From Candidatus Omnitrophota bacterium (GTDB lineage: Bacteria; Omnitrophota; Gorgyraeia; Aquiviventales; Aquiviventaceae), in NCBI GenBank assembly GCA_020057015.1, contig JAGVGS010000107.1, forward strand, positions 1-43,471: DNA of 43,471 nt, given 5' to 3'. Below are positions 19,586 through 42,788 of the stretch, one piece after another; within the stretch, counting starts at the first letter, position 1; the number at the start of each line of letters is the position of its first letter. The translations under genes were made by a program, and so were the position numbers. Under the pieces are notes generated by a model. That model did no database searches. It was not told the origin of the DNA and saw only the letters and a list, made by a program, of their open reading frames with translations.

Positions 19586-19621
19586 TTAGAAGGTACACGT
19601 TCCCTGACAATTTAGTTCGCT

Positions 19622-19694: not shown

Positions 19695-19703
19695 TATCCG
19701 TTG

Positions 19704-27700: not shown

Positions 27701-30700
27701 TCGGGTAGCTATGCCTTGACGATTCCCGATGCGATCGGCAGCAACCTGAAGGTGAAAGCGGTTCTGGCGAATAACACCAGTGTGACCGATGAATCCAACA
27801 CGGCCTTTACCGTGAAGGGCTCGCTCATCATCAGCGCGCCTAACGGCGGAGAAGTCTGGGATGTGAACACCCTGAACAACATCACCTGGACCAAAACCGG
27901 CACCATCGGCAACGTGGATTTAAGCCTCTCGCTCGATGGCGGCACAGACGCCTACGCAACCTCGATTGTCACGGGGATCTCAGCCACCTCGCCCTATGCC
28001 TGGACCATTCCGAGCAACACCACCTTGACAGCCCAAGCCCGCGTGAAGATCGCACCCGTGACCGCAGCCCAGGCCGCAGCCGACACGTCCGATGCCAACT
28101 TCCGCCTCCGCGGCAGCTTTACCCTGACCGCGCCCAACGGCGGCGAGCCCTGGATCGTGGGGGCGGCCAATAACGTCACCTGGACGCTGCTCGGCGGCAT
28201 GGTCAACGCCAAGCTCGAATACACGCGTGATGGCGGCTCTACGTATCACACCATTGTGGCCTCGACTGCCGCCGGCTCAGGCAGCTATGCCTGGACCGTG
28301 GACTGGGCCAACAGCGATAACAGCAAACAGGTGTTGAACAGCAATACCATGCGCGTGCGGATATCCGACGCAGCGGATGTCACGGTGCAGGATAGCTCCA
28401 ACGCGAACTTTACGGTGAAGGGGAGCCTCACCCTGGCGGCCCCCAACGGTGGCGAGAACTGGCTGGTAGGCGGGGCACAGAACATCACTTGGACCCGCAC
28501 CGGGTATCTGCCGAACGTGAAGCTGGAGTATTCAACGGACGGCGGTTCCACCTATCCCAACGAAATCGTAGCCTCGACGTCAGGAGAGGCCCTGAGCTAT
28601 GCATGGACCATCCCGAACGCCATTGATAATGATCTGCGCGTGCAAGTCACCGATTTGAGTGCGGTGGCGGCTGCTGCGGATGTGTCGAATGCCAATTTCA
28701 CGATCCGCGGCGCGCTGACGCTTACCTCGCCCAACGGCGGCGAGCAGCTCGGGATTGCCGGCAGCCACAATATTACCTGGACCCGCACCGGGACGGTCAC
28801 CGAAAACGTGAAACTGGTGTACTCGACCGACGGGGGCTCGACCTATCCGGAACCAAGCAAGGTGATCGTCTCGGATGTCGTCGCCGCAACGCAGACCTAT
28901 GCCTGGACGGTTCCCGATGCCCCGACGATCCAGGCCCGCGTGAAAATCATCCACACGCCGGTGGCGACTCCGCTGGCCGACCCTGATGAGTCCAACGCCA
29001 ACTTCAGCATCAAAGGGACTCTGACCATCGTCGCCCCGAATGGCGCCGAGACGTGGAAGAGCGGCGAGTCGCGCAACATCACCTGGACCCGCGGCGGCAG
29101 CATCGCTAGCGTCAGGTTGAGCTACTCGAAGGACAGCGGAGCGACGTTCCCGACCCAGATCATCGCCTCTACGGCCGGCGCCGACCTGGCTTATGGCTGG
29201 ACCGTGCCGGATGTCGTGACGGCGGCGGATCGCACGAAGATTCGGGTGAAGATCGAGGATGTAGGTGATCCCACGGTGAGCGACACGTCCAACGCCGATT
29301 TCACGATTCGGCCCCAACTGACGTTGACGGCCCCCAACGGCGGCCAGACCTGGCTCGTGGGCGCTTCGCAGAATATTACGTGGACAAAGAACGGCAGCAT
29401 TCCGAACGTGAAACTCGTCTACTCGACCGATAGCGGCAGCACCTACCCTGAAGCCGCCCCTGATAACACGATTACGGGCTCCACGCCCGGGGCTGACCTG
29501 TCGTTTGCTTGGACCGTGCCGGATAAGGTGGGCACGCTGCTGCGCGTGAAGATCGTGCAGACCGATGATGCCGCGGTGGTGGACACGTCGGATGGCGATT
29601 TCGCCATCAAGGGCTCGCTCGCACTGACCTCACCCAACGGCGGGGAAACTTGGCTCGTCAACGAGTCGCGGGCCGTGACCTGGACCCGCGTGGGCACCAC
29701 GGGCACGATGGCCGGCAACGTTGAGCTGGCCTACTCGATCAACGGGGGCACCGGCTACGGGGCCGCGTTTGCCACCCCGCTGGCCAGCGCCTTAACCTAC
29801 GCCTGGACCGTGCCCGATGCCATTGGTACCCAGCTGCGGGTGCGCGTGCGGGCCGAAGGGGACACCTCGGTCAGCGATGAGTCAAATGCCAACTTCACCA
29901 TCAAGGGTATCCTGGCGCTCACCGCCCCGAATGGTGGTCAGACCTGGGGGGTGGGGACCACGCCCAACATCACCTGGACCCGCACCGGCTCGATTACCAA
30001 TGTGAAGCTCGACTACTCGGTCGATAGCGGCGGCAGCTTCCCCAACGCCATTATTGCCTCGACCGATGCGTCCACCGGGACCTATGCCTGGACCGTGCCG
30101 GCGGGGGCTGTGCTGTCCACGCAAGCGCGCGTGCGGGTGACGGACGCCGCTGATGCCGCGGTGGCGGATGATTCGAATGCCGATTTCAATCTGGTGGGCG
30201 TGCTCGTACTGACGGCCCCCAACGGCGGGGAGATTTGGGCCTATAACACGTCGCAGAACGTCACCTGGACCCGCAGCGGCAATATCAGCAACGTGAAGTT
30301 GGAGTATTCCACCAACGGCGGCTCCAGCTACCCGAACGTGATCATCGGCTCGACCGCGGCCGCCACGCAGTCCTACACCTGGACCGTGCCCAATGAGCAC
30401 AGCGCCACGGTGCGCGTGAAGGTCTCGGATGCGGCGGCGGCGTTTACCGGCATTGTCAGTGACACCTCAAACGCGAATTTCAAGATTCGCTCGGGCTTGA
30501 CCCTGAGTGCGCCGGATGGCGGCGAGGTGTGGACCGTGGGCTCGGCGCAAAGCGTCGGCTGGGGTAGCTCCGGCACGGTGAACAATGTGATGCTGGAGTA
30601 CTCCACGAACGGCGGCTCGAGCTACGATTTCTTGGTGACCAACTCCGCTCCCAATACCGGGTCCTACAGCTGGACCGTGCCGGACGCGATCGGCACTTCG

Positions 30701-33700
30701 GTGCGGGTGAAGATCACTGATGCGGAGGATGCGGCTGCCTCGGATGCCTCGAATGGCAACTTCAAGATCCGCGGTTCGTTGACCTTAGGCGCGCCCAACG
30801 GGGGCGAGCAATGGGGCATTGCGACCTCCAAGAACGTCACCTGGACACGCAACGGCTCCATTGCGAATGTGAAGCTCGACTACTCGCTGAATGGCGGCAC
30901 AGACTATGACGGTTCGATTGTCGCCTCGACCGCGGCCGCGGCCGGCACCTATGCGTGGACCATTCCAGACTTTCCGACTGCGACCGCGCGCGTGAAAGTC
31001 GCCGACGCTGCTGATGCGCTGCTGGTCTTCGACACCTCGAATGCCAACTTCAGCATCAAGGGCTCCGTCAACGTGACCGCGCCCAACGGCGGCGAGACCT
31101 GGATTGTCGGGGCAGACAACAATGTCACCTGGACCAAGTTTGGCTCTATTAGCAGCGTGGAGATCCGCTACTCCGAGAACAACGGGTCGACTTGGCCCGC
31201 TGGCAATATCATTGTCGGCTCCACCAGCGCGGCCGCCGGGACCTATACGTGGACGATTCCAGACAAGATCGGCAATAGTGTCCTCGTGCGGATTACGGAT
31301 ACGGCCGACACGAGCACCCTGGATGACTCCAATGCGGTGTTCAGTATCAAGGGGTCATACGCGTTGACCTCACCGAATGGCAGCGAAACGTGGGTCGTGG
31401 GCGAGAGCCGCAACATTACTTGGACGAAGACCGGGACCTTGGGGAATGCCAAGTTGGAAATGTCGGTGAACGGGGGCAGCGTCTACCCGACAGAAATAGT
31501 CAATCCGGTTGCCTCAGTCGACGGCACCTATGGCTGGACCGTGCCGGACGCCATTGGGACGCAGGTGCGGGTGAAAATCACCCTCTTGTCCGACACCGCG
31601 GTCAATGATGCTTCGAGTGGAAACTTCACCATTAAGGGGTCGTTGACGCTCAACGCGCCCAATGGTGGTGAAGTGTGGACCGTAGGCAGCAACCAGCCCA
31701 TCACGTGGTCCCGCGTGGGGTCGATCGCCAACGTGAAGCTGGTGTACTCCACGGATGGTGGCGTGAGCTATCCAGAGGTGGGTCCGGACAACACGATTGT
31801 GGCTTCGACTGCGGCCGCGGCGGGCAGTTATTCCTGGACGATTCCCGATGCCATTACCACGACCGCGCGCGTGAAAGCGATCGATTTCTCGGATGCCTCG
31901 GTCAGCGACACCTCGAATGCCAATTTCAAGATCGCCGGCTCCCTCGCGCTGACCGCGCCCAACGGCGGCGAAGCCTGGCTCATCGGGGGCAGCCAGAACA
32001 TTACGTGGACCAAGCAAGGCGCCATCGCCAATGTGAAGTTGGAGTATTCGACCAATAGCGGAGGGGCCTATCCGAACGAAATCATTGCCTCGACCTCGGC
32101 CGCGGCCGGCACCTATGCCTGGACCATCCCGGATGCGCCGAGCACTGCCGTGCGGGTGAAGATCACCAACACCTCAGACTCCACGGTCAATGATGCCTCC
32201 AACGCGGACTTCAATATCCGCGGGACGCTGACCGTGGTCGCTCCGAATGGCAGCGAAGTGTGGACCGTGGGCGAGAGCCGTAACATCACCTGGAGCAAGA
32301 CCGGCTCGATCAGCAACGTGGAGCTGCGCTACTCCACGAACAGCGGCAGCAGCTACCCGACCGTCATCGTGGCATCCACCGCGGCCAGTGCCCTCAGCTA
32401 TGCCTGGACCGTGCCCGATGCCATTAGCACGACGGCGCGGGTCAAAATCACTGATACCACGGACTCCGCGGTGACAGACACCTCGAATGCCGACTTCAAA
32501 ATCCGAGGCGCGTTGTTGGTGACGGCGCCCAACGGCGGCGAGACCTGGATTGTGGGCGCTGCCCAGAACATCACCTGGACTCGTACCGGGTCGATTGCCA
32601 ATGTGAAGCTGGACTACGCTACCGATGGCGGGATCGGGTATACCAATCCGATTACCGCCTCTACCGCAGGGGCCGCAGGCACGTATGCCTGGACGATTCC
32701 TGATGCGATCGGCAACCAGGTGCGGGTGCGCATCGGCGATGCGGCCGATGACAACAATGTGTACGACATGTCGGACAACAACCTCACGATCAAGGGCGCG
32801 GTGACCTTGAACGCGCCCAACGGCGCCGAGAGCTGGATCGTGGGCGCTTCGCAGAACATCACGTGGAGCAAAAGCGGCACCTTGGGCAACTGCAAGCTGG
32901 AATACTCCACCACTAGTGGTGCCGCCTACCCCAACGAAATTGTAAACCCGATCGCGTGTGCGACCCTCACCTATGCCTGGACCATCCCGGATGCGATCTC
33001 GGCAGGGGTGCGGGTCAAGCTGACGAACCTGGTCGATACCGGCGTGAGCGATGCCTCGAATGCGGACTTCAACATCAAAGGCTCGTTGACGCTCACCAGC
33101 CCCAACGGCAGCGAGACGTGGCTGGTGGGTGAGACCCGCAGCATCACGTGGACCAAGACCGGCTCGATTGCCACCGCGCGACTGGACTACTCCACCAATG
33201 GCGGGGTGGCGTATCCGAACGTGATCACCGCCTCGACCGGTGCCGGGGGACTCTCGTTCTTGTGGACCGTGCCGGATAACATGTCCACCAACGTCAAGGT
33301 GCGCATCCGCAATGTCGATGACACCACGGTAGAGGATGAATCCAACGCCAGCTTCAAGATCGCCGGATCCTTCACGCTGAATTCGCCCAACGGGGCGGAG
33401 AAGTGGCCGGCCGGCTCGCTGCAGTCGCTCACCTGGAGCAAGACCGGTTCTATTGCGAATGCGAAGTTGGAACTCTCGACCGATGGGGGCAGCACCTATC
33501 CCACGTTGATTGTGGCCACGACCCCAGCGAGCAATTTGAGCTATGCCTGGACGTTGGGCTCGGCCACGAGCACCCAATGCCGCGTGAAGATCACGGACGT
33601 GTCGGACTCGGGGGTGAACGACGCTACTAATGCGAACTTTAAGATCATGGGCGGGTTTAGCCTCACTGCGCCGAATGGCGGCGAAGTCTGGGTGGTGGGC

Positions 33701-36700
33701 AGCAGCCAGAACATCACCTGGACCACCAGCGGGACGGTCGCCAATGTGAAGCTGGACTACTCGACCGATGGGGGTGCTAGCTACCCGAACGTGATCACGG
33801 CCTCGGTGACCAACACCGGCTCCTACGGGTGGACGATTCCTGATGCGATTGGCACGACCCTGCGCGTGAAGGTCGAGGACGTGCTCGATATTGATGCGAA
33901 GGATGAGTCCGATGCCAACTTCAAGATCAAGGGCTCGGTGACCGTGACCGCGCCCAATGGTGGTGAGCTGTGGGATGTTGGCGCGAGTCAAAACATCACG
34001 TGGACCAAGACCGGCACCATTGCCAACGTCAAGATTGAGTTCTCCACCGATGGCGGCACCAACTACCCCGGCGGCGGGCAAGTGATCGCCAATTCATTCA
34101 ACGCCGGAGCGTTCAGCTACAGCTGGACGGTGCCGGACTATATTTACACCACCCTGCGCGTGCGGCTGACTGATGTCGGCGATGCGACGGTGGTGGATCA
34201 GTCCAACAACAACTTCACGGTGCGTGGGGCCTTCACGCTCACCGCGCCGAATGGCGGAGAAAAGTGGAAAGTCGGGGCAACGCAAGTCATCAGCTGGACC
34301 ACGTTTGGGACGATTCCCAATGTGAAGCTGGAGTACTCCAGCAACGGCGGCACGGACTACAGCAACATTGCGGCCTCCGCGGCCAACACCGGCACGTATA
34401 ACTGGACCCTACCTAACGCGATCTCGACCACCGCAAAGGTACGGGTCTCCAATGCAGCCGATGCCGGTACGCTGGATGTCTCGAACGCCAACTTTAAGAT
34501 TATGGGGAACTTCACGGTCACGGCGCCGGATGGCGGCGAAGTGCTGACTGCGGGCAGCAGCTATAACGTCACCTGGACGAACCAGGGCACGGTGTCCAAC
34601 GTCGAGCTGAAATACTCCACCAATAGCGGCGGGGCCTACGGCAATACCATCGTGGGCTCGGCTTCGAACACTGGAACCTATAGCTGGACGGTGCCGGATG
34701 CGATCTCCTCCACCCTGCGGGTGCGGGTGGCTGACGCAACCGATGCGACCGATGCGTTTGATACCTCCAATGCGGACTTCAAGATTCGCGCCGGGTTTAC
34801 CCTGACCGCACCCAATGGGAGTGAGGCCTGGACCGTCGGCACGGCGCGCAATGTGACATGGACCACCGCCGGCACGGTGGCCAACGTGAAGCTCGAGTAC
34901 TCCATCAACGGCGGCACCGATTATGTCAATATCATCGGCTCAACGGCCAACAGCAGTCCCTATAGCTGGACAATTCCCGATGCGATTACCACCGCCGGCC
35001 GGGTGCGGGTCTCGGATGTGAATGACAGCACGGCCAATGATGCCTCGAATGCGAACTTCAAGATCCAAGGGGTGCTCACCATGACCGCGCCCAACGGCGG
35101 GGAGAAGTGGACCGTCAACAGCGCCCGGTCGGTGAGCTGGGACCGCGTCGGATCCATTGCGAACGTGAAACTCGACTTCTCCACGAACGGCGGCTCGATC
35201 TACGCGCCCATTATCGCCTCCACCGCGAACACAGGGACGTATGCCTGGACGATTCCAGATAGCGTCTCGACCGACTGTTTGGTGAAGGTGACCGACACCA
35301 ATGATGCGACGGTGACCGATGCCTCCAACGCGGCCTTCAAGATTCAGGCCGGCTTTGTGGTGACCGCGCCCAACGGCGGCGAGGTGTGGGGCATCGGCTC
35401 AGCCCGCACGATTGCATGGACGACCAATGGAACCGTGGCTTTTGTCAAGATCGACTACTCTACGGATGGCGGGACTAATTACACCAACCAGATTACGACG
35501 TCTACCGCCAACACGGGGACCTACAACTGGACCATCCCGGATGCGATCTCTGGGACGGTGCGGGTGAAAGTCTCCCAAACCACGGATGCCGAGGCGTTTG
35601 ACACTTCGGATGGCAATTTCCGCATCCGTATCAGCGTGGCCTTGGTGGCCCCCAATGGGGCCGAGGTCTGGCGCGTGGGCCAGTCGCGCAACGTCACCTG
35701 GTCAATCAGCGGCACGATTCCCAACGTGAAGCTGCAGTACTCCCGCGATGGGTTCAATGCGGATCTGCAAACCATCAACATCAGTGCGCCCCAAACCGGC
35801 AGTTACGCCTGGACGATCCCGGATGCCATCTCCAACACGGTGCGCGTGCGCGTCAGCGACCCCAATGACATCGGGGCCTTGGATGACTCGAACGCCGACT
35901 TTAGGATCATTGCGAACTTTACCGTGACGGCGCCGAATGGCAGCGAGCAATGGACGGTCGGCAGCGCGCAAACCGTCACGTGGACGTCCGCAGGCTCGGT
36001 GTCCAATGTCAAGCTCGAGTACTCCACCAACTCGGGCGGGTCATGGAACCCCCTCCTGGGTTCCACCCCGAATGACGGTACCCAGGGCTGGACCGTGCCC
36101 GATGCGATCAGTGCCAATGCGCGTTTGCGCGTCAGCGACCCGGCCGACAGCACGTCAGATGATACCTCGGACAATGACTTCAAGATCCGGGCGTTCTTTG
36201 CCCTCAGCGCGCCCAATGGCAGCGAAATCTGGACGGTGAATGAGAGCCGCAACATCACGTGGACGAACACCGGCACGGTGCCCAATGTGAAGCTGGAGTA
36301 TTCCACGGATGGCGGCGCGAACTACAACCAAACCATTGCGGCCTCAACGGGTAATACGGGCACGTATGCCTGGACCGTGCCGGATGCCATTTCCACGACC
36401 GTGCGGGTCAAGGTGACGTCCACTACCGATGTGGATGGCAATGATGCCTCGGATGCGAACTTCAAGATCCGCGGCGCCTTTAATCTCACGGCGCCCAACG
36501 GGGCAGAGAACTGGAAGATTGCCAACAACCACACCATCACCTGGACAACCACCGGCACGATGGCCAACGTCAAGCTCTCCTACTCGACCAACGGAGGGGC
36601 CGCGTTCCCGAACACCATCATCGCCTCGGTGGCGAACACCAATAGCTACGTGTGGAATGTGGCCGATGCGCCCACCACGGCCGGCCGCGTGCGGGTGGAA

Positions 36701-38956
36701 AGCGTGCTGGACAACACGGTGTATGATGACTCGAATGCCAACTTCAACATCCAGGGTAACTTCACGCTGACGTTGCCGAACGGCGGCGAGTCCTGGAGTG
36801 TGGGGGAGAACCGAAACATCACCTGGAACTGGGGCGGCACGATTCCCAACGTGAAGCTCACTTACTCGACCGACAGCGGCAGCACGTTCCCGAGCGTGAT
36901 CACGGCCTCGGCGCCCAACGGGCCAGGCTCCAGCGGCAGCTTCAGCTACGCGTGGACCGTGCCGAATAGCATCACCACAACCGCGCGGGTCAAGGTGGAG
37001 GACGTCACGGATGGGGCGGTGTTCGATGCGTCCAACGCCGACTTCAAGATCCAGGGTAAGCTGACCCTCATCGCCCCCAACGGCAGCGACCGCTGGGTCG
37101 TGAATGAGACCAAGCCGATTCAGTGGAGCACCGCCGGCAGCATCAACAACGTGAAACTCGAGTACTCGACCGACAGCGGCAGCACGTATCCGAACACCAT
37201 CGTGGCCTCGGTGGCCAACGGGGGCAGCTACAACTGGGTCGTGCCCAACACGACGTCCACCACGGCGCGTGTACGGGTCCTCAACGTGGCGGACAACACC
37301 GTGGCCGATGCCTCGGATACCGACTTTACGATCGACCTGTATCAAATTACCGTGCATATCAAGGATCTCTTGACGAACAATGCGCTCGATCAGGTCGGGG
37401 TGGATGGCGCCAACAGCCTGAACGCCGCCTACCTGTGGCAGCAGTCGGGCATCACCTCGCCGATCACGAAAGGCCTGCAATACGGGACCTGGCCGATCAA
37501 GTTCAGCCGGGTCGAGTACGGCGACCAAGTGATCAATGTCGTGGCCGATAGGGACCAGACGATGAACGTGTACATGGAGACCCAGGTGGTGCACCTGTGG
37601 GAAGTGGTGACCGAGATGGCGTATAACTCCACCACCGATACCGTGGCGATTGCGGCCACGCTGCGTCGCGATGGGTCCACGGTCATCGGCGTCACCTCGA
37701 ATACGGTCAAATTCTATGATGGCGGTGCGCTGATCAAGACCTTTACCACGAATGGGGCCCCGGATGCCCAGGGCTTCTATAACTACACGTGGACCACTCC
37801 CACGGGCCTCGTGGCCGGCAAGGTGTACAATGTGGTCAGCAGCGGCACGATCGCGACGGGTGGCGTGTTCAACACGCCGAAGACCTTCAGCATCACGGAG
37901 GTTTCGAAGCTGCAGGATGTGCAAAATACGATCAATGATAAGTTGAATATGTCGATGAGCACGATGCAGACCAACATCCGCGGTGATTTGAGCGCGCAGA
38001 CCGGCACGATTACCGGGGCGTTGACGGCGCAGACATCGGCGATCAACACGTCGCTATCGAACTTTGAGACCAAGAGCGACGTGCAGATCAACGCCCTGAA
38101 GCTGCGCGCGGATGAGATCAAGGACGCCGGCGGCGAGCTGCAGAAGAGCAGCGAAGACTTGAACGCCACCAACGCCAAGTTCTCTGGCAACTTGATCACG
38201 CCGAAGAACGCGCTGATCAACGACAAGGATGTGAAGATCCAGTACCGGGCCATTCCGAACTTAGTACCGCTCATCACGATCACGGCTCAGGATACGAGCA
38301 ACCAAAGCGTGACCGTGGTCTCGGGAGAGCCGATGAGCCTGGTGGACGGCTACGCTGACATGTACGAATACACGATCGATAAGATCACCTCCCCGCCGTA
38401 CACGCCCGGCAAGGCCGTGAGCGTGGTGGTGGAGGCCGAGGTCTTCACCTACGTGCTCGATGCCGCGAAGGGCAAGGTGAAGAACGTCGAAGCGGGCTCT
38501 TTCATCGTGGAATCCACGACGCTGAGCACCCTCGAGGGCCTCGTGGCTTCGCAGGGCGGCCTGAAGGATCTGGTGCAGAGCATGGTGGCCACGATGAATG
38601 GGCTGAAAGGCAACGTGGCCAGCCGTGGGGATAGCATGGCCATGTTGGATGCCCTCAACCGGAAGATCGACCAATTGCCCAGGCTGATCGTGCAGGAGAT
38701 GAACCGCGGCAGCACAATGACCGACATGAAAGACGAGATCGCGCAGATCAGTGAGACCTTGCAGGATTTGGCGGGCAAGGATCTCGGGCTGGATCTGACC
38801 AATATCGTGGGCAAGGCGATCGATGAGTCCTCTGGGATCAAGGAGCTGCGCCAGTCGGCTGATCGGGTGCAGGGCAGCACCGAGCTCATGCAGAAAATCG
38901 TCGAACAAAAGTGGGGAGGCATCGATGCGCCGGTCATCCACGCGATCTACCAGTAA
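21740..38956 (+). CDS. Giant (5738 aa) secreted or surface repeat protein: unique N-terminal ~400 aa, 49 tandem Ig-like modules, ~540-aa C-terminal region
   Basis: A single uninterrupted ORF. Start is ATG 21740, 2 nt after the upstream stop, or ATG 21776 behind GGAGAGGGGG. Signal-like N-terminus is WRVIAAGVLGILTAGLLAFPQPAEA/F. Module consensus is sLTlTAPNGGE.W.VGs.QNITWT.tGsI.NVKLEYSTdGGstYpn.I.aSt.n.GsY.WTIPDaIst..RVkV.D..d..v.D.SnAnFkIrG. The C-terminus has beta-sandwich-like and low-complexity helical segments. Confidence 0.9.
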   Translation: MTPANRRGGEQSMGATSWRSWRVIAAGVLGILTAGLLAFPQPAEAFQVKRVLRNTTAFQLLNGEEVKTYDLTSQLGGVPLDMTKCFIVASTFPSSGFNTQTDAFIAIDDPSTIMAARRTGTAQVDIQFMVIEFVDGVSVQSGLTVISETALTKNIVLPASVDLAKSFALITWRSFNHNTQATHDDKNLYSADLTAVNNLRLQRSDQAGTFLNDVYYQVVSFDEDVTVTKGTVDIDAVQDAGETSDNGTAMVATINPALTSVNDAMMFFTIRPSAAVNGVDQQYKVDGYINATNAITFTRNNNTNSVSIVYYLLNFSNEMYVQHARNTATLPNGTASGTFNLPTVTTLARTFGTFSSSGPGTAGNADNPSLYVTGALASVAGPQTQVTLARSGTSGATAVSYMAPELPPVNVTAPDTASIIWKVGEARTITWKHADDVAANTAAIDLSVNGGSAWLGTSITCDEGARTMASDVCTWTIPDSLGGTSVIGNNLRIRVRDTVLAARNFDPTDVSFEIIGSITVTAPNGSEVWYVGDTNRNITWTNTGNHTTDKVNIYLSENGGSTYPTAIVTGGSAPTVESGTYAWNPMPDKIGTDRRVRVESQNDPAPIDVFDTSNANFEIRGSVTVTYPNGAETLETQKAYNITWNKTGTFAPNNEVNIYYSKNSGGQYPTTLVTNQAAGASSGSYSWTPVAGDVSDFARVKVTQRDNSNVTDESNADFLVKPSIVVSYPNGGENLVVGTPTNVTWTTNGAGLANVKIEYSINGGGAYSPIIENDNIADDGIVTNNGTRSWDVPDVIGGNVLIKISNPSISAINDVSDAIFRVKGQTKVLIPNGTELWPVGGSRNIQWSNVGTFTSNVDIRFSTNGGADGYPGGNTIVAGHTNTGASGSYTWNPVVDIAGGYNNAMRIKVLPVDSVNVAEDTSDASFTIHGTLTLAAPNGGQTWVYGGAAQNITWTKTGAIGNVELRYSTNSGGGFGSPFATGLNPTAGTPYAWTLPDSLSNAARIQVRTVDQPLVIYDDSDADFFLKGSLTVTAPNTAVTWYRGDIQNVTWTRAGTTGAMTGNVDIHYTPDNGSNYYAISVNNVLASAGTYPWTIPTDAPNDTVQSDTVKVRVRLSSDTVVSDESNVTFKIKPRLTLTAPNTNVAWIVGTSQNITWTTAGSVPKVKLSYSTTGGSPYANSIVADLSNVNSYAWTIPDAIGTQLRVLVAKDTPVDPDSAVEDFSDADFEIKGSLTLTSPNLGTEVWIVGSSQNITWTKTGSLTGNVKLYYSTDGGSTYVGDPASPFATVAVTAGSYAWTIPDAIDNDLKVKVVYVNDTAVADASNAVFTVKGSLTITAPNTGTEIWDVNTLHNITWTKTGTIGNVDLSLSLDGGTDGYATSIVTGVTSTSPYAWTIPSNTTLTVQARVKIAPVTAAQAAADTSDANFRLRGSFTLTAPSGPENWIVGASQNITWTSLGGIANAKLEYSRDSGSDGYPYLITASTPAGAGSYAWTVGWAAADADKTNSSTIRVRVSDAATADVNDTSDADFTIRGSLALTAPNGGENWLVGSSQNIAWTRTGKIPNVKLVYSVDSGVDGYPESTPNQTIVGSTSGEALSYAWTIPDKIGTALRVKIYDLSSVSATPDTSNADFTIRGSLAVTAPNGSESWTYGGAAQNVTWTLNGTVTGNVKLYYSNNGGSSYMGDPGTPFATVAASAGTYAWTIPDDLTTQARVKITHAGSPTADPDESNANFTIKGVLVLVAPNGGEDWRADESQNITWTRTGTIALVNLYYSTNSGGTYPVTIASAVNGGNLSRAWTIPNTLSVTTARVKIEDNGNTAVLDTSDADFIIKPKLTLLTPNGSEVWYVNNNTDDITWTTNGTVAEVNLKYATDGSTFSNPIATQLANINAYDNWVIPDALSTTVKVRVESFTDAANVSDVSNADFTIRGAITVTAPNTNVTWIVGDSQNVTWTKVGSLTGNVNLYYSTNGGSSYLGDPGTPFATPTVASGSYALTIPDAIGSNLKVKAVLANNTSVTDESNTAFTVKGSLIISAPNGGEVWDVNTLNNITWTKTGTIGNVDLSLSLDGGTDAYATSIVTGISATSPYAWTIPSNTTLTAQARVKIAPVTAAQAAADTSDANFRLRGSFTLTAPNGGEPWIVGAANNVTWTLLGGMVNAKLEYTRDGGSTYHTIVASTAAGSGSYAWTVDWANSDNSKQVLNSNTMRVRISDAADVTVQDSSNANFTVKGSLTLAAPNGGENWLVGGAQNITWTRTGYLPNVKLEYSTDGGSTYPNEIVASTSGEALSYAWTIPNAIDNDLRVQVTDLSAVAAAADVSNANFTIRGALTLTSPNGGEQLGIAGSHNITWTRTGTVTENVKLVYSTDGGSTYPEPSKVIVSDVVAATQTYAWTVPDAPTIQARVKIIHTPVATPLADPDESNANFSIKGTLTIVAPNGAETWKSGESRNITWTRGGSIASVRLSYSKDSGATFPTQIIASTAGADLAYGWTVPDVVTAADRTKIRVKIEDVGDPTVSDTSNADFTIRPQLTLTAPNGGQTWLVGASQNITWTKNGSIPNVKLVYSTDSGSTYPEAAPDNTITGSTPGADLSFAWTVPDKVGTLLRVKIVQTDDAAVVDTSDGDFAIKGSLALTSPNGGETWLVNESRAVTWTRVGTTGTMAGNVELAYSINGGTGYGAAFATPLASALTYAWTVPDAIGTQLRVRVRAEGDTSVSDESNANFTIKGILALTAPNGGQTWGVGTTPNITWTRTGSITNVKLDYSVDSGGSFPNAIIASTDASTGTYAWTVPAGAVLSTQARVRVTDAADAAVADDSNADFNLVGVLVLTAPNGGEIWAYNTSQNVTWTRSGNISNVKLEYSTNGGSSYPNVIIGSTAAATQSYTWTVPNEHSATVRVKVSDAAAAFTGIVSDTSNANFKIRSGLTLSAPDGGEVWTVGSAQSVGWGSSGTVNNVMLEYSTNGGSSYDFLVTNSAPNTGSYSWTVPDAIGTSVRVKITDAEDAAASDASNGNFKIRGSLTLGAPNGGEQWGIATSKNVTWTRNGSIANVKLDYSLNGGTDYDGSIVASTAAAAGTYAWTIPDFPTATARVKVADAADALLVFDTSNANFSIKGSVNVTAPNGGETWIVGADNNVTWTKFGSISSVEIRYSENNGSTWPAGNIIVGSTSAAAGTYTWTIPDKIGNSVLVRITDTADTSTLDDSNAVFSIKGSYALTSPNGSETWVVGESRNITWTKTGTLGNAKLEMSVNGGSVYPTEIVNPVASVDGTYGWTVPDAIGTQVRVKITLLSDTAVNDASSGNFTIKGSLTLNAPNGGEVWTVGSNQPITWSRVGSIANVKLVYSTDGGVSYPEVGPDNTIVASTAAAAGSYSWTIPDAITTTARVKAIDFSDASVSDTSNANFKIAGSLALTAPNGGEAWLIGGSQNITWTKQGAIANVKLEYSTNSGGAYPNEIIASTSAAAGTYAWTIPDAPSTAVRVKITNTSDSTVNDASNADFNIRGTLTVVAPNGSEVWTVGESRNITWSKTGSISNVELRYSTNSGSSYPTVIVASTAASALSYAWTVPDAISTTARVKITDTTDSAVTDTSNADFKIRGALLVTAPNGGETWIVGAAQNITWTRTGSIANVKLDYATDGGIGYTNPITASTAGAAGTYAWTIPDAIGNQVRVRIGDAADDNNVYDMSDNNLTIKGAVTLNAPNGAESWIVGASQNITWSKSGTLGNCKLEYSTTSGAAYPNEIVNPIACATLTYAWTIPDAISAGVRVKLTNLVDTGVSDASNADFNIKGSLTLTSPNGSETWLVGETRSITWTKTGSIATARLDYSTNGGVAYPNVITASTGAGGLSFLWTVPDNMSTNVKVRIRNVDDTTVEDESNASFKIAGSFTLNSPNGAEKWPAGSLQSLTWSKTGSIANAKLELSTDGGSTYPTLIVATTPASNLSYAWTLGSATSTQCRVKITDVSDSGVNDATNANFKIMGGFSLTAPNGGEVWVVGSSQNITWTTSGTVANVKLDYSTDGGASYPNVITASVTNTGSYGWTIPDAIGTTLRVKVEDVLDIDAKDESDANFKIKGSVTVTAPNGGELWDVGASQNITWTKTGTIANVKIEFSTDGGTNYPGGGQVIANSFNAGAFSYSWTVPDYIYTTLRVRLTDVGDATVVDQSNNNFTVRGAFTLTAPNGGEKWKVGATQVISWTTFGTIPNVKLEYSSNGGTDYSNIAASAANTGTYNWTLPNAISTTAKVRVSNAADAGTLDVSNANFKIMGNFTVTAPDGGEVLTAGSSYNVTWTNQGTVSNVELKYSTNSGGAYGNTIVGSASNTGTYSWTVPDAISSTLRVRVADATDATDAFDTSNADFKIRAGFTLTAPNGSEAWTVGTARNVTWTTAGTVANVKLEYSINGGTDYVNIIGSTANSSPYSWTIPDAITTAGRVRVSDVNDSTANDASNANFKIQGVLTMTAPNGGEKWTVNSARSVSWDRVGSIANVKLDFSTNGGSIYAPIIASTANTGTYAWTIPDSVSTDCLVKVTDTNDATVTDASNAAFKIQAGFVVTAPNGGEVWGIGSARTIAWTTNGTVAFVKIDYSTDGGTNYTNQITTSTANTGTYNWTIPDAISGTVRVKVSQTTDAEAFDTSDGNFRIRISVALVAPNGAEVWRVGQSRNVTWSISGTIPNVKLQYSRDGFNADLQTINISAPQTGSYAWTIPDAISNTVRVRVSDPNDIGALDDSNADFRIIANFTVTAPNGSEQWTVGSAQTVTWTSAGSVSNVKLEYSTNSGGSWNPLLGSTPNDGTQGWTVPDAISANARLRVSDPADSTSDDTSDNDFKIRAFFALSAPNGSEIWTVNESRNITWTNTGTVPNVKLEYSTDGGANYNQTIAASTGNTGTYAWTVPDAISTTVRVKVTSTTDVDGNDASDANFKIRGAFNLTAPNGAENWKIANNHTITWTTTGTMANVKLSYSTNGGAAFPNTIIASVANTNSYVWNVADAPTTAGRVRVESVLDNTVYDDSNANFNIQGNFTLTLPNGGESWSVGENRNITWNWGGTIPNVKLTYSTDSGSTFPSVITASAPNGPGSSGSFSYAWTVPNSITTTARVKVEDVTDGAVFDASNADFKIQGKLTLIAPNGSDRWVVNETKPIQWSTAGSINNVKLEYSTDSGSTYPNTIVASVANGGSYNWVVPNTTSTTARVRVLNVADNTVADASDTDFTIDLYQITVHIKDLLTNNALDQVGVDGANSLNAAYLWQQSGITSPITKGLQYGTWPIKFSRVEYGDQVINVVADRDQTMNVYMETQVVHLWEVVTEMAYNSTTDTVAIAATLRRDGSTVIGVTSNTVKFYDGGALIKTFTTNGAPDAQGFYNYTWTTPTGLVAGKVYNVVSSGTIATGGVFNTPKTFSITEVSKLQDVQNTINDKLNMSMSTMQTNIRGDLSAQTGTITGALTAQTSAINTSLSNFETKSDVQINALKLRADEIKDAGGELQKSSEDLNATNAKFSGNLITPKNALINDKDVKIQYRAIPNLVPLITITAQDTSNQSVTVVSGEPMSLVDGYADMYEYTIDKITSPPYTPGKAVSVVVEAEVFTYVLDAAKGKVKNVEAGSFIVESTTLSTLEGLVASQGGLKDLVQSMVATMNGLKGNVASRGDSMAMLDALNRKIDQLPRLIVQEMNRGSTMTDMKDEIAQISETLQDLAGKDLGLDLTNIVGKAIDESSGIKELRQSADRVQGSTELMQKIVEQKWGGIDAPVIHAIYQ
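22964..37339 (+). repeat. 49 tandem in-frame coding modules (93-108 aa each, 4792 aa in total)
   Basis: Counted module by module from the translation. The lengths sum exactly to aa 409-5200 of the ORF. Each module carries APNG, an (I/V)TW strand, an Asp-box-like S-x-D-G-G-x-x-Y/W motif, (A/S)WT(I/V)P and a terminal (A/G)(D/N)F.I.(G/P/A). Confidence 0.95.
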
Positions 38957-38957
38957 C

Positions 38958-39791
38958 ATGGCGCAGGCCCTGCTCGCCTTGGCCCTCACCCTGCTGGCCG
39001 GCCTTCGGGTGGAGGCGGCGGTCGAGCGCGAGCCGGTGATGCTCTCGGTCGTGGCGGTGAATCCCTCGGCAGAGAAGACCCAAACACTCCCCATCCGCAT
39101 CGACTTGCCCAGGGAAGTGAAGCCGGCCGATGTGCTGGACGTAGGCGAGCTGACGCTCGAGTACGATGATGACCAGCAGAACTACTACGTCTTCAAGGAC
39201 TTGGTGGCACTCGAACCCAAGCAAACGCTGGTCTTCGAAGTGCGGGTGAAGGACGTGTGGTTCGTGCCGCAGCCAGAGCTGGATAGCTTGCGCGATTATG
39301 CGAGCCTGCTCATGAGCCGGATCAAAAACACCGAGTACGCGAACACGGCTAAGGCGCTTACCGAGAGCATCCACAGCCGCCTTGGCGAGATCGCCGCTAC
39401 GCAGGATGATGAGACGCTAAGCCGCAAGGCCCGCATCGGCGCGTACCGGCACCACCTGGACGTGGTAGCCCAGGTGAAGGAAGACCTCAGTCGGATGGAG
39501 AAGCTGCTCACGTTCACCGGTGGGCCGCCGGTGCCGGAGCTGCTGGAGCAATCTTCGCTGAAATCCGATGCGCCGTCCAAGACGACCACCTGGATGGTCA
39601 TCTTTCTGATCCTGATCTTCATCGGACTCTTGGGTGGGCAGTTTTTCTTCACCTGGAGCCGGCGCGCCAACGTGACCCGCGACCTCTCGATCCTGAGGGA
39701 GGCCACCTTTGGCAAGCAGCCCGGCAAAGCCCCCACCGGGCAGGTCGGCAACGGGCACGGGGCGGCCCCAGGCACCGCACCCCGGCGCTAG
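38958..39791 (+). CDS. Signal-peptide protein with C-terminal TM anchor, unknown function
   Basis: ATG 38958 is 2 nt after the giant-gene stop. Signal peptide is MAQALLALALTLLAGLRVEA/A. C-terminal TM is TWMVIFLILIFIGLLGGQFFF, followed by a basic Gly/Pro-rich tail. Confidence 0.6.
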   Translation: MAQALLALALTLLAGLRVEAAVEREPVMLSVVAVNPSAEKTQTLPIRIDLPREVKPADVLDVGELTLEYDDDQQNYYVFKDLVALEPKQTLVFEVRVKDVWFVPQPELDSLRDYASLLMSRIKNTEYANTAKALTESIHSRLGEIAATQDDETLSRKARIGAYRHHLDVVAQVKEDLSRMEKLLTFTGGPPVPELLEQSSLKSDAPSKTTTWMVIFLILIFIGLLGGQFFFTWSRRANVTRDLSILREATFGKQPGKAPTGQVGNGHGAAPGTAPRR

Positions 39792-39803
39792 CAGCCTTGC
39801 TCT

Positions 39804-40067
39804 ATGGCCGCCGGCCTGCTGCACGTCGTCGTCCTTAGCCCCGAGCAGGTGCTCTTTGAGGGCGATGCCGACCATGTGATCGCCCCCGGAGAGTATGGGG
39901 TCTTCGAAATCCTGCCCTTCCACCGGCCCTTTGGCAGCTTGCTGCTGCCTGGACACCTCATCATTGATTCCCAGGCCCTGCCCATCGAGCGGGGGGTGCT
40001 GCGCGTTGAGCGAGACACTGTTACTGCCCTTGTCGAACTGCCGCCTGAAAACGGGGACAGTTACTAA
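39804..40067 (+). CDS. atpC: F-type ATPase epsilon subunit, beta-sandwich domain only (87 aa)
   Basis: LLHVVVLSPEQVLFEGDADHVIAPGEYGVFEILPFHRPFGSLLLPGHLII..ERGVLRVERDTVTALVE matches the epsilon N-terminal domain pattern. There is no C-terminal helical hairpin. The last ~6 codons and the stop lie inside palindromic element copy 3. Confidence 0.7.
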   Translation: MAAGLLHVVVLSPEQVLFEGDADHVIAPGEYGVFEILPFHRPFGSLLLPGHLIIDSQALPIERGVLRVERDTVTALVELPPENGDSY

Positions 40068-40123
40068 TTTGTGCCCGGACCCCTAGACGGCACACCGAAA
40101 ATTAGTGACTGTCCCTGTTTTTT
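40048..40123 (-). repeat. Palindromic ~75-bp element, copy 3 (inverted orientation)
   Basis: AAAACGGGGACAGTTACTAATTT GTGCCCGGACCCCTAGACGGCACACCGA AAATTAGTGACTGTCCCTGTTTTTT. The central asymmetric part matches the reverse complement of copies 1 and 2. Arms are conserved and a T-run follows. Confidence 0.8.
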
Positions 40124-40134
40124 GCTCGCCTGCC

Positions 40135-40164
40135 TTGCTTTTTTGCGCTACGAACAGGTATGCT
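40135..40164 (+). promoter_or_regulatory. Putative sigma70-like promoter
   Basis: TTGCTT (40135-40140), an 18-nt spacer, then TATGCT (40159-40164). Confidence 0.35.
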
Positions 40165-40207
40165 TTAACTACATAGAATTAAGCAGGTTTGGTCAACTTT
40201 AGTGCTG

Positions 40208-40284
40208 TAGAAGGGCAAACGATCCGCAAGGATCGGGCGCAAAGCCGCAAGTCCTGCGCAGGCAGGATGGTTGGGCTGCCGGCA
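40208..40284 (+). promoter_or_regulatory. GEMM-I-like riboswitch aptamer (variant 3' strand)
   Basis: GAAGGGCAAAC, GAUCC-GCAA-GGAUC, GGGCGCAAAGCC, GCAA, GUCCUGC-GCAG-GCAGGAU, GGUUGGGCUGCC. The GGGCAAAC junction, GNRA-capped hairpin and GCGCAAAGCC junction are conserved. The 3' strand GGUUGGGCUGCC deviates from CAGCCGGGUUGCC. Confidence 0.6.
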
Positions 40285-40300
40285 CAAGCCAGCGTGATTG

Positions 40301-40332
40301 CGCCCATCCACCGCGGATGGGCGTTTGCTGTT
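40301..40332 (+). terminator. Terminator-like hairpin (expression platform), weak U-tract
   Basis: A 9-bp stem CGCCCATCC/GGATGGGCG with loop ACCGC, followed by TTTGCTGTT. TTGCGCCC (40298-40305) is the exact complement of the aptamer segment GGGCGCAA (40235-40242). The RBS GAGGAG (40333-40338) follows immediately. Confidence 0.5.
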
Positions 40333-40341
40333 GAGGAGACC

Positions 40342-40563
40342 ATGGGCCGTAATGTGGCGTTGACGGTCGTGTTTTTCATCTGTCTCATCGGGCCGGCGGC
40401 CGTGATGGCCGTGATGGGCAAGGCCAGCATCGGGGCGCTGGGCCGCAATCCCTCGGCCGCGCCCAAGATTCTCACGGCTATGATCATTAACCTGATTTTT
40501 GTCGAAGCCATTGCCGTGGTGGCCCTGCTGGTCATCTGGCAGCTCTTCACGCAGAAAGGCTAA
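40342..40563 (+). CDS. atpE: F-type ATPase subunit c
   Basis: ATG 40342 lies behind GAGGAG. The track start at 40189 would read through the riboswitch-like leader. The 73-aa two-helix hairpin has the loop GALGRNPSAAP and the carboxylate in LIFVEAIAVVALLV. Confidence 0.85.
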   Translation: MGRNVALTVVFFICLIGPAAVMAVMGKASIGALGRNPSAAPKILTAMIINLIFVEAIAVVALLVIWQLFTQKG

Positions 40564-40569
40564 GCCTCC

Positions 40570-41295
40570 ATGCTCGCGATGATTTCAGTGATCGTGGTGC
40601 TGCTGCTGGTCTTTATCGCGATGGTGCTCATCTGGCGCCAGATCATGACCGGCCAGGTCACCCACGCGACGACCCACTTGCGGGAGCTGAGCCAAGACTA
40701 CCTCAAGCGGCATGAAGAGCTGAAGGATCGCCAGAGCGAGGGGGATAAGCGCTATCAGGACCAAATCGAGTCGGCCAAGGCCGAGGGCGAGCGATTGCGC
40801 GCGAAGCTGCTGGAAGAGGCGGAGGCTGCGCGCGTGCGCCTCGTGGCTGAGGGCAAGGCCGAGAGTGAGCGCCTCGTCAACCAGGCGCTGGCGGCCCGCG
40901 ACGTGATGCAGCAAGAGATGGATGCGACGATGAGCCATCGGGCCGTGGCGCAAGCGCGGCAACTCGTGCAGGAGATCCTCCCGGCGCCGATGCGCCAGAT
41001 CATGCAAGCGCAATGGGTCGAGGAGCTGATGGAAGGCCTGAAGGCCCTCCCGAAACTGGAGACAGCCGAGCCGGTGAAAGAAGTCCGTGTGGCCTCGGCC
41101 TTTGCGCTCACCGCCGCACAGCGCCAGCGGCTGCAGGCCGGGCTGGAGGCGCTGGTCGGCCACCCGGTGACGTTGCAGGAGACGGTGGAGGAAAGCCTGC
41201 TCGCCGGGCTCATGCTCACGGCCGGCCACTTAGTGCTGGATGGCACCCTGACATCCAAACTGGAGCAGGCCGCGCGCAGCCTGCACGCCTCATGA
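40570..41295 (+). CDS. atpF: F-type ATPase subunit b with delta/OSCP-like C-terminal extension
   Basis: N-terminal TM is ISVIVVLLLVFIAMVLIW, followed by a long charged helix. The C-terminus VRVASAFALTAAQRQRLQAGLEALVGHPVTLQETVEESLLAGLMLTAGHLVLDGTLTSKLEQ resembles the delta C-terminal domain. No separate delta gene is present. Confidence 0.65.
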   Translation: MLAMISVIVVLLLVFIAMVLIWRQIMTGQVTHATTHLRELSQDYLKRHEELKDRQSEGDKRYQDQIESAKAEGERLRAKLLEEAEAARVRLVAEGKAESERLVNQALAARDVMQQEMDATMSHRAVAQARQLVQEILPAPMRQIMQAQWVEELMEGLKALPKLETAEPVKEVRVASAFALTAAQRQRLQAGLEALVGHPVTLQETVEESLLAGLMLTAGHLVLDGTLTSKLEQAARSLHAS

Positions 41296-42788
41296 CCCCG
41301 ACGGCTCCGGGTGCGGCGGCGGCCCCTGCGGGCATGCGCTTTGACATCCGGGAAGTGGGCCGGGTGGCGTCGGTGCGTGAATTCATCGTGCGGGTGAAGG
41401 GCCTGCCCTCCTGCTTGAACGGCCAGATGGTGGAATTCGCGCGCGGCGGCAAAGGCATCGTGATGGGCTTTACAGAACAGGACGTGCTCGTGCTCATTCT
41501 CGGCAATGAGGCCAACATCCGCGCCGGCGACGAAGTCTACTCCCGCGGGCAAGCCTTCGCGACCCCGGTCGGCGAGGGGCTGCTGGGGCGGGTGGTCACG
41601 GCGCTGGGCGAGCCCTTTGATGACCAGGGCCCGGTGCTGGCCACCGACGTGAGGCCGACGTTCTATGAGGCCCCGGGGGTGATGGAGCGCGTGCCGGTGA
41701 AAGAGGGGCTGCAGACCGGGGTGCGGATTGTGGACGCTGCGTTTCCCATCGCCAAAGGCCAGCGGCAGCTCATTATCGGCGATCAGATGACCGGCAAGAC
41801 CACCATTACCACCGACACCATCCTCAACCAGCATGACAAGGGGGTCATTTGCATCTACTGCGCCATCGGCCAGAGCCAGTCGTCGTTTCTCAAGGTGCTC
41901 TCGCTGCTGCGCGAGCGCGGGGCGCTGGCCTACACGATCGTGGTGGCCGGCATCGCCTCGGCCCCGCTGGGCGAGCAGTACCTGGCCCCCTACGCCGCGG
42001 CGTCGATGGCCGAATACTTCGCCTCCAAGGGGCGCGACGTGTTCGTGGCCTTTGACGATCTCAGCAAGCACGCCTGGGCGTACCGGCAGCTCTCGCTGCT
42101 CATGGAGCGCGCCCCGGGCCGCGAGGCCTACCCGGGCGATATCTTCTATGTCCACTCGCAGCTCCTGGAGCGGGCCGGCAAGTTCATCAAGGAGCTGGGC
42201 GGGGGCACGATCACCTTCTTTCCGATTGTCGCCACCATTCAAGGTGACATCACGGGCTATGTGCAAACCAACATTATTTCGATTACCGATGGGCAGCTCT
42301 ACCTCAATACCGGCCTCTTTCAGAGGGGGTTCAAGCCGGCCATCGACTTCGGGCTCTCGGTCTCGCGTATCGGCAACAAGGCCCAGTGCGAGGCCATGCG
42401 CGAGCTCAGCGGCAAATTGCGCCTGGAATACCTGCGCTACCAGGAGCTGCTCTCGATGACCAGCATGAAGGCGGATCTCTCGGCCGAGGCCGAGGCGCGC
42501 TTGCGCCGCGGGGAAGTGATCAACCAGCTCATCACGCAGAACAAGGCGCGGCCCTCGCCGCTGAGCGAGCAGATCGTGTTCCACTACGCCATCCGCAAAG
42601 GGCTGCTCGACCCGCTCTCGCGCGAGGCCCGCCTGAAGTTCAAGGAGCGGGTCCATGCCTGGCTGCAGGAGCACTCCGCCGGGCTGCTGCAGCAGATTCA
42701 GGCGCAGCAATCGATGACGCCGCCGATCAAGGAAGGCCTGGATAAGGCCTTGGGGCTGTTCCTGCATGACGAAGGGCTGGTCGTGTGA
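41292..42788 (+). CDS. atpA: F-type ATPase alpha subunit
   Basis: ATG 41292 overlaps the b stop (ATGA). Motifs are P-loop GDQMTGKTT, CIYCAIGQ, FDDLSKHAWAYRQLSLLMERAPGREAYPGDIFYVHSQLLERA and ISITDGQLYL. Confidence 0.95.
   Translation: MTPTAPGAAAAPAGMRFDIREVGRVASVREFIVRVKGLPSCLNGQMVEFARGGKGIVMGFTEQDVLVLILGNEANIRAGDEVYSRGQAFATPVGEGLLGRVVTALGEPFDDQGPVLATDVRPTFYEAPGVMERVPVKEGLQTGVRIVDAAFPIAKGQRQLIIGDQMTGKTTITTDTILNQHDKGVICIYCAIGQSQSSFLKVLSLLRERGALAYTIVVAGIASAPLGEQYLAPYAAASMAEYFASKGRDVFVAFDDLSKHAWAYRQLSLLMERAPGREAYPGDIFYVHSQLLERAGKFIKELGGGTITFFPIVATIQGDITGYVQTNIISITDGQLYLNTGLFQRGFKPAIDFGLSVSRIGNKAQCEAMRELSGKLRLEYLRYQELLSMTSMKADLSAEAEARLRRGEVINQLITQNKARPSPLSEQIVFHYAIRKGLLDPLSREARLKFKERVHAWLQEHSAGLLQQIQAQQSMTPPIKEGLDKALGLFLHDEGLVV

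Follow-up and report, generated by a model that had tools for sequence, protein, structure and literature searches.

What is a riboswitch of the cyclic di-GMP (c-di-GMP) class doing directly in front of the genes for an F-type ATPase? The question is raised by a stretch of 43,471 nucleotides (nt) from a Candidatus Omnitrophota bacterium (the whole of contig JAGVGS010000107.1; hereafter the window), in which a leader at 40135-40341 precedes the genes for ATPase subunits c, b/delta (fused), alpha and gamma. The leader elements and subunit genes described below all lie on the + strand. A sequence-only reading of this DNA had proposed a GEMM-I-like leader with a promoter, an antiterminator/terminator pair and a ribosome-binding site (RBS) at this place, and our analysis supports the proposal. 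We think it likely that 40135-40341 is a complete and independent c-di-GMP OFF-switch unit for the c-to-gamma genes (and for beta in relatives), that these genes encode a pilus-associated, non-respiratory ATPase, and that a second riboswitch in the window (leader 2, near 19.6 kb) gates the transcription unit upstream. The riboswitch itself belongs to a known class; its target genes are the unreported part. In the literature searched, no paper connects ATP synthase, F1-like ATPases or Omnitrophota with a c-di-GMP riboswitch, in agreement with the sequence-only reading, which was not aware of any description of such control of ATP synthase genes.

Is the element a genuine GEMM-I aptamer? An Rfam scan of the window gave a full-length match to the c-di-GMP-I (GEMM-I) family RF01051 at 40204-40283 (model positions 1-87 of 87), scoring 62.3 bits against a curated threshold of 35 (E = 5.7e-10), and no non-canonical pair was flagged in it. 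This was the covariance-model check that the sequence-only reading had called for. The match is far beyond chance, and we regard the assignment as certain. P1a is formed by 40215-16 with 40239-40, and P1b by 40220-25 with 40230-35, a 6-bp hairpin (CGAUCC-GCAA-GGAUCG, 40220-40235) capped by a GCAA loop; P2 occupies 40243-40277. The motif GGGCAAAC starts at 40213 and the motif GCGCAAAGCC at 40237. Both had been listed before, together with the GCAA-capped hairpin and GGGCGCAA with its complement, and each was found where it had been placed.

Which ligand would this aptamer sense? The Vc2 structure shows each guanine of c-di-GMP paired with one aptamer base, G20 or C92, and a 2'-hydroxyl of the ligand in contact with A47 (PMC5888326). 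The corresponding positions of the window aptamer (G20 at 40214, A47 at 40241 and C92 at 40279) are canonical, as they are in all 11 aligned leaders described below. These contact nucleotides point to c-di-GMP as the ligand and make a different one unlikely. Perhaps the aptamer nevertheless recognizes another cyclic dinucleotide, for example 3'3'-cGAMP as the GEMM-Ib aptamers do, or something else altogether? The sequence-only reading had raised this idea. In its favor, the P1 bulge, GAC in the consensus, has its middle base changed from A to G in the window, and the single-base bulge in P2 after AGCC is G instead of A; moreover, the other two aptamers of the window score best with the variant model RF03167 (c-di-GMP-I-GGC). 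However, both A-to-G changes fall outside the three contacts. The P1 bulge is free to vary among orthologues, being GGC in 7 of the 11 aligned leaders, the window included, while the P2 bulge is G only in the window among those 11 and again in L070, the closest relative. The GEMM-Ib group is cGAMP selective (PMC5888326). Position 20 is G in the window and in all orthologues. Selectivity of GEMM-Ib for cGAMP has reportedly been linked to an A at that position. As for RF03167, its "GGC" would, going by the model consensus, be the contact triplet G-G-C, with G at position 47; position 47 here is A, and the best model for 40204-40283 is RF01051. We therefore give a ligand other than c-di-GMP only a very slight chance, and the earlier suggestion is not supported.

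If the leader has a function, it should leave a trace in relatives of this locus. Related loci (L001-L035, about 276 kb scanned) were gathered by a genome scan with a 12-sequence alignment, and the b/delta homologues come from Candidatus Omnitrophota genomes and metagenomes. Seven GEMM-I matches passed the threshold (window, L003, L018, L020, L021, L022 and L026), all of them between the epsilon and c genes and on the coding strand. Relaxed searches added sub-threshold aptamers in L007 (E = 1.7e-7), L004 (E = 0.0036) and L070 (E = 1.9e-9). Two more, in the long spacers of L002 and L013, were identified by eye with manual segmentation: their large insertions break the model match, and Rfam called no aptamer in either locus even with lax filters. 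Altogether the leader lies between epsilon and c in 12 of the 29 loci with a visible epsilon-c junction. The survey of relatives that the sequence-only reading had wished for thus found the leader upstream of the c gene well beyond the window.

The aptamers maintain their pairing while their sequences diverge. A hand-made alignment of 11 cores, with insertions cut out and L070 left out, has 198 base-pair cells, of which 195 are canonical, and both sides have changed in 11 of its 18 pairs; the alignment was fitted to the model, which favors the model. The GNRA loop, G20, A47 and C92 are invariant in these cores. Such compensatory change, across leaders that otherwise differ widely, would be hard to explain without selection on the RNA. 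The expression platform is also conserved: a promoter block and a terminator with U-tract occur in the window and in all 11 orthologous leaders.

The same survey counts against a general role for the leader. The remaining 17 of the 29 loci have no riboswitch at the epsilon-c junction; in 13 the two genes nearly abut, and in 4 they are separated by spacers of 69-181 nt. Three loci (L001, L014 and L015) are near-identical, so that the effective number of independent loci is slightly smaller. In an alpha tree, carriers are interspersed with non-carriers within one clade and are absent from two deeper clades; this neighbor-joining tree of 209 residues is a rough guide to gain and loss. We conclude that riboswitch control at the epsilon-c junction is optional, and the distribution of carriers suggests repeated loss or transfer.

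Several of the orthologous aptamers carry large insertions (L004, 3835-4000; L013, 2299-2483; L018, 5350-5555; L002, 2552-2740; also L007, L020, L021 and L070). In L004, L013 and L018, extra hairpins of 45-130 nt stand between the GAC/GGC bulge and the P1a 3' strand; the insertion of L002 lies inside P1b, and those of L007, L020, L021 and L070 in the P2 loop. Rfam mostly misses or under-scores these aptamers, and in L018 it aligned an inner hairpin instead.

How might the aptamer act on the genes behind it? A terminator scan matched an intrinsic terminator at 40300-40332, a hairpin at 40300-40324 and then UUUGCUGUU. The hairpin has 10 pairs (7 G-C, and a closing G-U among the rest) and a 5-nt loop, and TTTGCTGTT follows it; the sequence-only reading had given a 9-bp stem and a 5-nt loop. 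This is the one such site in the region, and about one is expected by chance. Because of that expectation, the case for the terminator rests on its conservation in relatives, and here the pattern is regular: a hairpin with a U-tract follows all 12 aptamers, its stem mostly GCCCAUCC/GGAUGGGC, and the orthologous U-tracts, with 5-6 consecutive U, are stronger than the window's.

The 5' strand of this terminator has a second possible partner. The switch sequence UUGCGCCCAUCC at 40298-40309 is, from 40300 on, the terminator 5' strand, and it is also the 3' strand of a predicted antiterminator. The antiterminator 5' strand, 40230-40242, consists of aptamer nucleotides: the P1b 3' strand, the GGC bulge, the P1a 3' strand, A47 and A48. 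Within it, GGGCGCAA at 40235-40242 is exactly complementary to TTGCGCCC at 40298-40305. This 8-nt complementarity had been noticed in the sequence-only reading, and the pairing proves to be longer than it saw: 40230-40242 and 40298-40309 form a duplex of 12 bp with one bulged C, at -24.8 kcal/mol (z = -3.0 versus shuffles), and in folding calculations it is the minimum-free-energy structure for transcripts with 3' ends at 40305-40320. Predictions give this pairing in five leaders, namely, the present one, those of L070, L022 and L026, and leader 2 of the window. Across these five, the bulge base covaries with its partner, GGC-GCC in three and GAC-GUC in two. Between leader 2 (GGACGCAA with UUGCGUCC) and the present leader (GGGCGCAA with UUGCGCCC), an A-U pair has been exchanged for G-C, a compensatory change; the covariation-like preservation of complementarity that had been claimed for these two leaders thus stands.

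Could the leader instead act on translation by masking the RBS? The Shine-Dalgarno sequence of the c gene, read as GAGGAG at 40333-40338 ahead of the ATG at 40342, is unpaired in every predicted fold, and the terminator hairpin of the leaders lies anywhere from 12 to 271 nt from the start codon. We rejected RBS sequestration on both grounds. Because the distance spans so wide a range, the mechanism common to these leaders would be transcription termination rather than translational masking, and we regard termination as the likely mode of control. A further candidate, pairing of the P2 3' strand UGGGCU with AGCCCA of the terminator as a general antiterminator, was rejected as well, since it is not conserved in the CGGCU leaders.

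These elements suggest the following switch. In the ligand-free RNA, 40230-40242 would pair with 40298-40309 once the latter is transcribed and would hold the terminator 5' strand, and RNA polymerase would continue into the c gene. With c-di-GMP bound, the aptamer would retain 40230-40242, the hairpin at 40300-40324 would form and transcription would end. Because ligand binding needs exactly the aptamer nucleotides 40230-40242, binding would free the terminator, and the switch would be OFF. At equilibrium the predicted terminator fold (-71.9 kcal/mol) and antiterminator fold (-70.2 kcal/mol) are nearly equal. Since they lie less than 2 kcal/mol apart, the decision between them would have to be kinetic.

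This near equality weighs against the proposed switch, as do several other observations. The window's U-tract is the weakest of the set. In 8 of 11 leaders the best antiterminator duplex is no better than shuffled controls; the window and L026 alone reach significance in duplex energy against shuffles, with L018 a marginal case. In three GAC-bulge leaders the terminator retains a mismatched GCCC. We do not claim a universal antiterminator, and the OFF direction is well supported in only about five leaders.

Given these points, might the polarity be the reverse, with c-di-GMP blocking the terminator and raising ATPase expression? GEMM-I riboswitches of both polarities are known, so an ON switch would not be out of keeping with the class, and the failure of the antiterminator pairing in most relatives to exceed shuffles leaves room for it. 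A long-range helix predicted between the 5' leader and 40281-40299 could conceivably have a role in such a switch. However, both strands of the terminator lie outside the aptamer, and the sole strong competitor for its 5' strand is an aptamer segment that the ligand-bound fold would sequester. This is the standard layout of an OFF switch, and the pairing covaries in the five leaders named above. An ON switch thus seems to us distinctly unlikely, and the architecture makes the OFF direction probable.

A switch of this kind needs a promoter of its own. The -35/N18/-10 site proposed in the sequence-only reading is found as described, with TTGCTT at 40135-40140, an 18-nt spacer and TATGCT at 40159-40164 (40135-40164 in all). 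A generic promoter scan of 39700-40700 called none because the -35 hexamer of the window matches at only 3 of 6 positions. The case for a promoter is instead one of conservation. Orthologous leaders repeat the block CAGGTATGCTTTAA around the -10, in most cases with TTGACA or TTGACG ahead of it; leaders with visible upstream sequence share TTGACA/TTGACG, a spacer of about 17-18 nt and then the -10 block CAGGTATnnTTTAA. The window's other two riboswitch leaders have the related blocks CAGGTAGGCTTTAG and TAGGTATACTTTAT. These data suggest a sigma-70-type promoter within the leader, which we infer to be in use.

Is the promoter needed, or does transcription simply arrive from upstream? Upstream of the promoter-like site, a long hairpin with a U-run at 40047-40122 (+) folds at -40.8 kcal/mol (z = -9.2), and L070 has the same post-epsilon hairpin with compensatory changes. 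It is probably an intrinsic terminator that ends the transcript of the upstream genes, which run from a giant open reading frame (ORF) through a gene that we call p322 to epsilon. With a strong terminator after epsilon and a conserved promoter block behind it, the closely spaced c-to-gamma genes would form a transcription unit of their own in the window. The opposite view would be that the element is an inactive relic, or that the c gene is transcribed solely by read-through. The weak window -35 (TTGCTT), the empty promoter scan and the lack of the element in 17 of 29 relatives could be read that way. Nevertheless, compensatory changes maintain the aptamer pairs across diverged orthologues, the promoter block and terminator are conserved along with them, and the -40.8 kcal/mol terminator would close the upstream unit. 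We find a relic or a pure read-through arrangement scarcely credible and conclude that the leader most plausibly serves its own unit.

What does this unit encode? The c gene (40342-40563; Pfam ATP-synt_C, E = 1.9e-7) specifies 73 amino acids (aa) with the loop GRNP and, by alignment with relatives, a carboxylate, E54, in the second transmembrane helix. It is followed by a fused b/delta (OSCP) stalk subunit of 241 aa (40570-41295; Pfam OSCP, E = 1.4e-14, plus ATP-synt_B), by F1 alpha of 498 aa (41292-42788; Pfam and NCBIfam, TIGR00962 at 545 bits versus a cutoff of 484) and by F1 gamma, which is cut by the contig end (42788-43471; Pfam ATP-synt, E = 1.2e-26). Pfam and NCBIfam thus bear out the gene identities given in the sequence-only reading, and the regulated subunits are F-type by every test. 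Upstream of the leader, the epsilon gene (39804-40067; Pfam ATP-synt_DE_N, E = 3.6e-12) encodes 87 aa with the beta-sandwich domain only; its position is conserved in relatives, and with it the upstream transcription unit ends.

The surroundings of these genes are unusual and constant. The 35 related loci share one gene order: giant ORF, p322 (about 320 aa), epsilon, c, b/delta, alpha, gamma and beta. In L011 (12450-16285) and L022 (13047-16478), Pfam identifies PilB with an MshEN domain, PilC and a T2SSG-type pilin directly after beta, L011 having in addition a stand-alone MshEN-domain protein between beta and PilB; by ORF order, L026 and L027 have ORFs of the same sizes after beta. MshEN is a known c-di-GMP-binding domain, and c-di-GMP may thus act on the module at the protein level too. 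We found no subunit a within 8 kb on either side in L011, L022, L026 or L027. The c-ring carboxylate (residue 54; window 40501-40503, E) is replaced by M in L003 and L009 and by Q in L024, L025, L029 and L030, and its loss in these six relatives would be hard to reconcile with ordinary proton translocation. The p322 gene (window, about 38958-39791) has homologues in L001-L031, is conserved and always stands directly before epsilon. Its product has a signal peptide and one C-terminal membrane helix, as in a secreted, single-pass membrane protein; it gave no Pfam, NCBIfam or PDB sequence match and may be a specific partner of this ATPase. In Omnitrophota, Seymour et al. (2023) described a non-respiratory "symbiotic" F-type ATPase that adjoins type-4a pilus genes and giant ORFs (PMC10066038), and they separate a "respiratory" clade from the pilus-linked clade. 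The regulated genes of the window most likely encode this non-respiratory, type-IV-pilus-associated ATPase.

Perhaps, however, the genes encode an ordinary chemiosmotic ATP synthase, and c-di-GMP throttles energy conversion? Some of our own results lean that way. Alpha in the window (545 versus 484 bits) and beta in the relatives (575 versus 463 bits) exceed the NCBIfam equivalog cutoffs for ordinary F0F1 subunits. The best PDB matches of alpha are canonical bacterial F1 alpha chains. The Walker A motif and the GERIRE catalytic motif are both present in beta, which passes the AtpD cutoff, and the c subunit of the window has its carboxylate, E54. Moreover, the window ends inside gamma, so that beta and the pilus genes are seen in relatives only. 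Set against this are the absence of subunit a near the four long loci, an epsilon without its C-terminal domain, the fusion of b to delta, the constant placement of the cluster after the giant ORF and p322 and before pilus genes, the loss of the c carboxylate in six relatives and the distinction drawn in PMC10066038 between the pilus-linked and "respiratory" clades. An ordinary ATP synthase is therefore unlikely, though it deserves real weight. The sequence-only reading had spoken of ATP synthase structural genes; the F-type identity of the subunits stands, and the bioenergetic framing needs qualifying, given the flanking giant ORF and pilus genes and the want of a subunit a nearby.

The rest of the window holds two more aptamers of the GEMM-I clan, at 8204-8278 (71.3 bits) and 19619-19696 (68.9 bits). 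Both have RF03167 as their best model although position 47 is A. The second, leader 2, has its own terminator at 19703-19726 and the antiterminator pairing GGACGCAA/UUGCGUCC already mentioned; the sequence-only reading was correct in comparing its build with that of the ATPase leader. Behind it lie a Y1-transposase-like gene, a small gene, the 5,738-aa giant ORF, p322 and epsilon. In the two relatives where this region is visible, L071 (854-964, 68.8 bits) and L072 (931-1056, 45.4 bits, below the 59-bit threshold, with E = 4.7e-8), a GEMM-I aptamer occupies the corresponding position, followed as in the window by the Y1-transposase-like gene, the small gene and the giant ORF. Because both carry an aptamer there, leader 2 is conserved as well. 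In the window, both halves of the module thus lie behind c-di-GMP aptamers, and the whole surface module would answer to c-di-GMP. In loci whose epsilon and c genes abut, the aptamer ahead of the upstream unit may be the only one that governs the ATPase genes.

Could the F-type complex be a motor rather than a synthase? c-di-GMP commonly governs motility, pili and adhesion. Since surface and motility machinery is the usual remit of this messenger, control of the ATPase module by c-di-GMP would be biologically coherent, and the target of the signal is probably a surface machine and not ordinary energy metabolism. A bolder version is that the complex is not an ATP synthase at all but a c-di-GMP-regulated rotary motor, working with the giant surface protein, p322 and the type IV pilus to attach to host cells or to move on them, and that two riboswitches of the same design turn both halves off as c-di-GMP rises. 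We offer this as a tentative idea, somewhat less likely than not. If true, it would make this the first F-type rotary machine under second-messenger control at the RNA level, and the ligand and reporter fusions would offer an experimental handle on an apparatus that is known from uncultured bacteria only.

The regulatory link matters for the more cautious reading as well. The "symbiotic" role of the pilus-adjacent ATPase of Omnitrophota has so far been assigned from phylogeny and gene neighborhood only, and PMC10066038 does not mention c-di-GMP, diguanylate cyclases, second messengers or riboswitches. Should the ATPase and the giant-ORF unit be gated repeatedly by c-di-GMP riboswitches, the module would join the regulon of motility, pili and adhesion, and such gating would be independent regulatory evidence for a non-bioenergetic role. 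It would also make that idea testable without cultivation. Riboswitch biology, for its part, would gain a new target class, along with GEMM-I aptamers with large insertions that Rfam under-scores or misses.

Other features of the window and of the related loci were recorded in passing. The 5,738-aa ORF at 21740-38956 contains many repeats of about 85-90 aa and a Kre9_KNH-type Ig-like match; the relatives have, at the place of the giant ORF, ORFs that exceed 2,000 aa before the locus end truncates them. Between the first and second riboswitches lie genes for a PAS histidine kinase and two HD_5-domain proteins (11533-13098, 12657-14135 and 16603-17637). HD_5 is the domain type of the HD-GYP c-di-GMP phosphodiesterases. 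An rve-type integrase gene (7121-8131) is situated just upstream of leader 1, and an IS200-like Y1 transposase gene (18738-19538) just upstream of leader 2. The 3' strand of the first aptamer, GGATCGCCGGGTTGCCGAAGG at 8259-8279, is repeated exactly 32 nt downstream, at 8291-8311, and the copy may be an alternative pairing partner within the expression platform of leader 1. Some intergenic spacers of these clusters are filled with repeats: GGACCAA heptamer palindromes in L007 (7911-7978 and 10261-10384), CATTACG in L018 (about 5620-5860) and three tandem copies of about 60 nt in L002 (about 2150-2400). Such repeats produce spurious matches to miRNA families in Rfam; those in L004, L007 and L070 were rejected because they are long palindromes, not miRNAs.

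How does this system compare with those already known? Among ATPases, the N-ATPase is an alternate F1Fo enzyme with the operon atpDCQRBEFAG. The present cluster resembles it in having a b subunit, about 245 aa long, with both a b and a delta-like region (a TIGR03321 match) and in the order c, b, alpha, gamma. It differs in that all "alt_F1F0" models score far below their cutoffs; in that AtpQ, AtpR and subunit a are missing and beta stands at the end of the cluster, not at the start; and in that the c subunit has an E-A motif, not the E-S/T motif of the Na+ type. The ATPase of PMC10066038 is alike in coming from Omnitrophota relatives and in having F-type subunits directly beside PilB, PilC and pilin genes and a giant ORF; the paper is silent on p322, a missing subunit a and loss of the c-ring carboxylate. 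It compares the pilus-linked ATPase with the Mycoplasma type-2/3 F1-like ATPases. Unlike those families, alpha and beta here are nearer to ordinary F1 by hidden Markov model score, alpha scoring 545 bits with the ordinary F1 alpha model versus 406 bits with MMOB1660.

Among riboswitches, the GEMM-Ib aptamers of Geobacter share the overall fold and the clan, and they differ from the window aptamer and its orthologues, which have G20. Closer is Vc2 of Vibrio cholerae, with the RF01051 class that it represents: a two-helix aptamer with a GNRA-capped P1, the GCAAAGC junction, the 3' strand GGGCUGCC and G20, A47 and C92 is common to both. The window aptamer departs from Vc2 in its GCAA loop, its GGC bulge in P1 and its lack of the 11-nt tetraloop-receptor motif in P2, and from the class in the kind of gene downstream, which has not been reported for it in the literature searched. 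The nearest parallel in design may be the Cd1 c-di-GMP-I riboswitch of Clostridioides difficile, which lies upstream of the flgB flagellar operon and is an OFF switch with an intrinsic terminator. There, as here, a GEMM-I aptamer is followed by a terminator. At Cd1 the two precede a long operon for a surface motility machine; here the target is an F-type rotary ATPase cluster instead of flagellar genes, and the OFF polarity is predicted.

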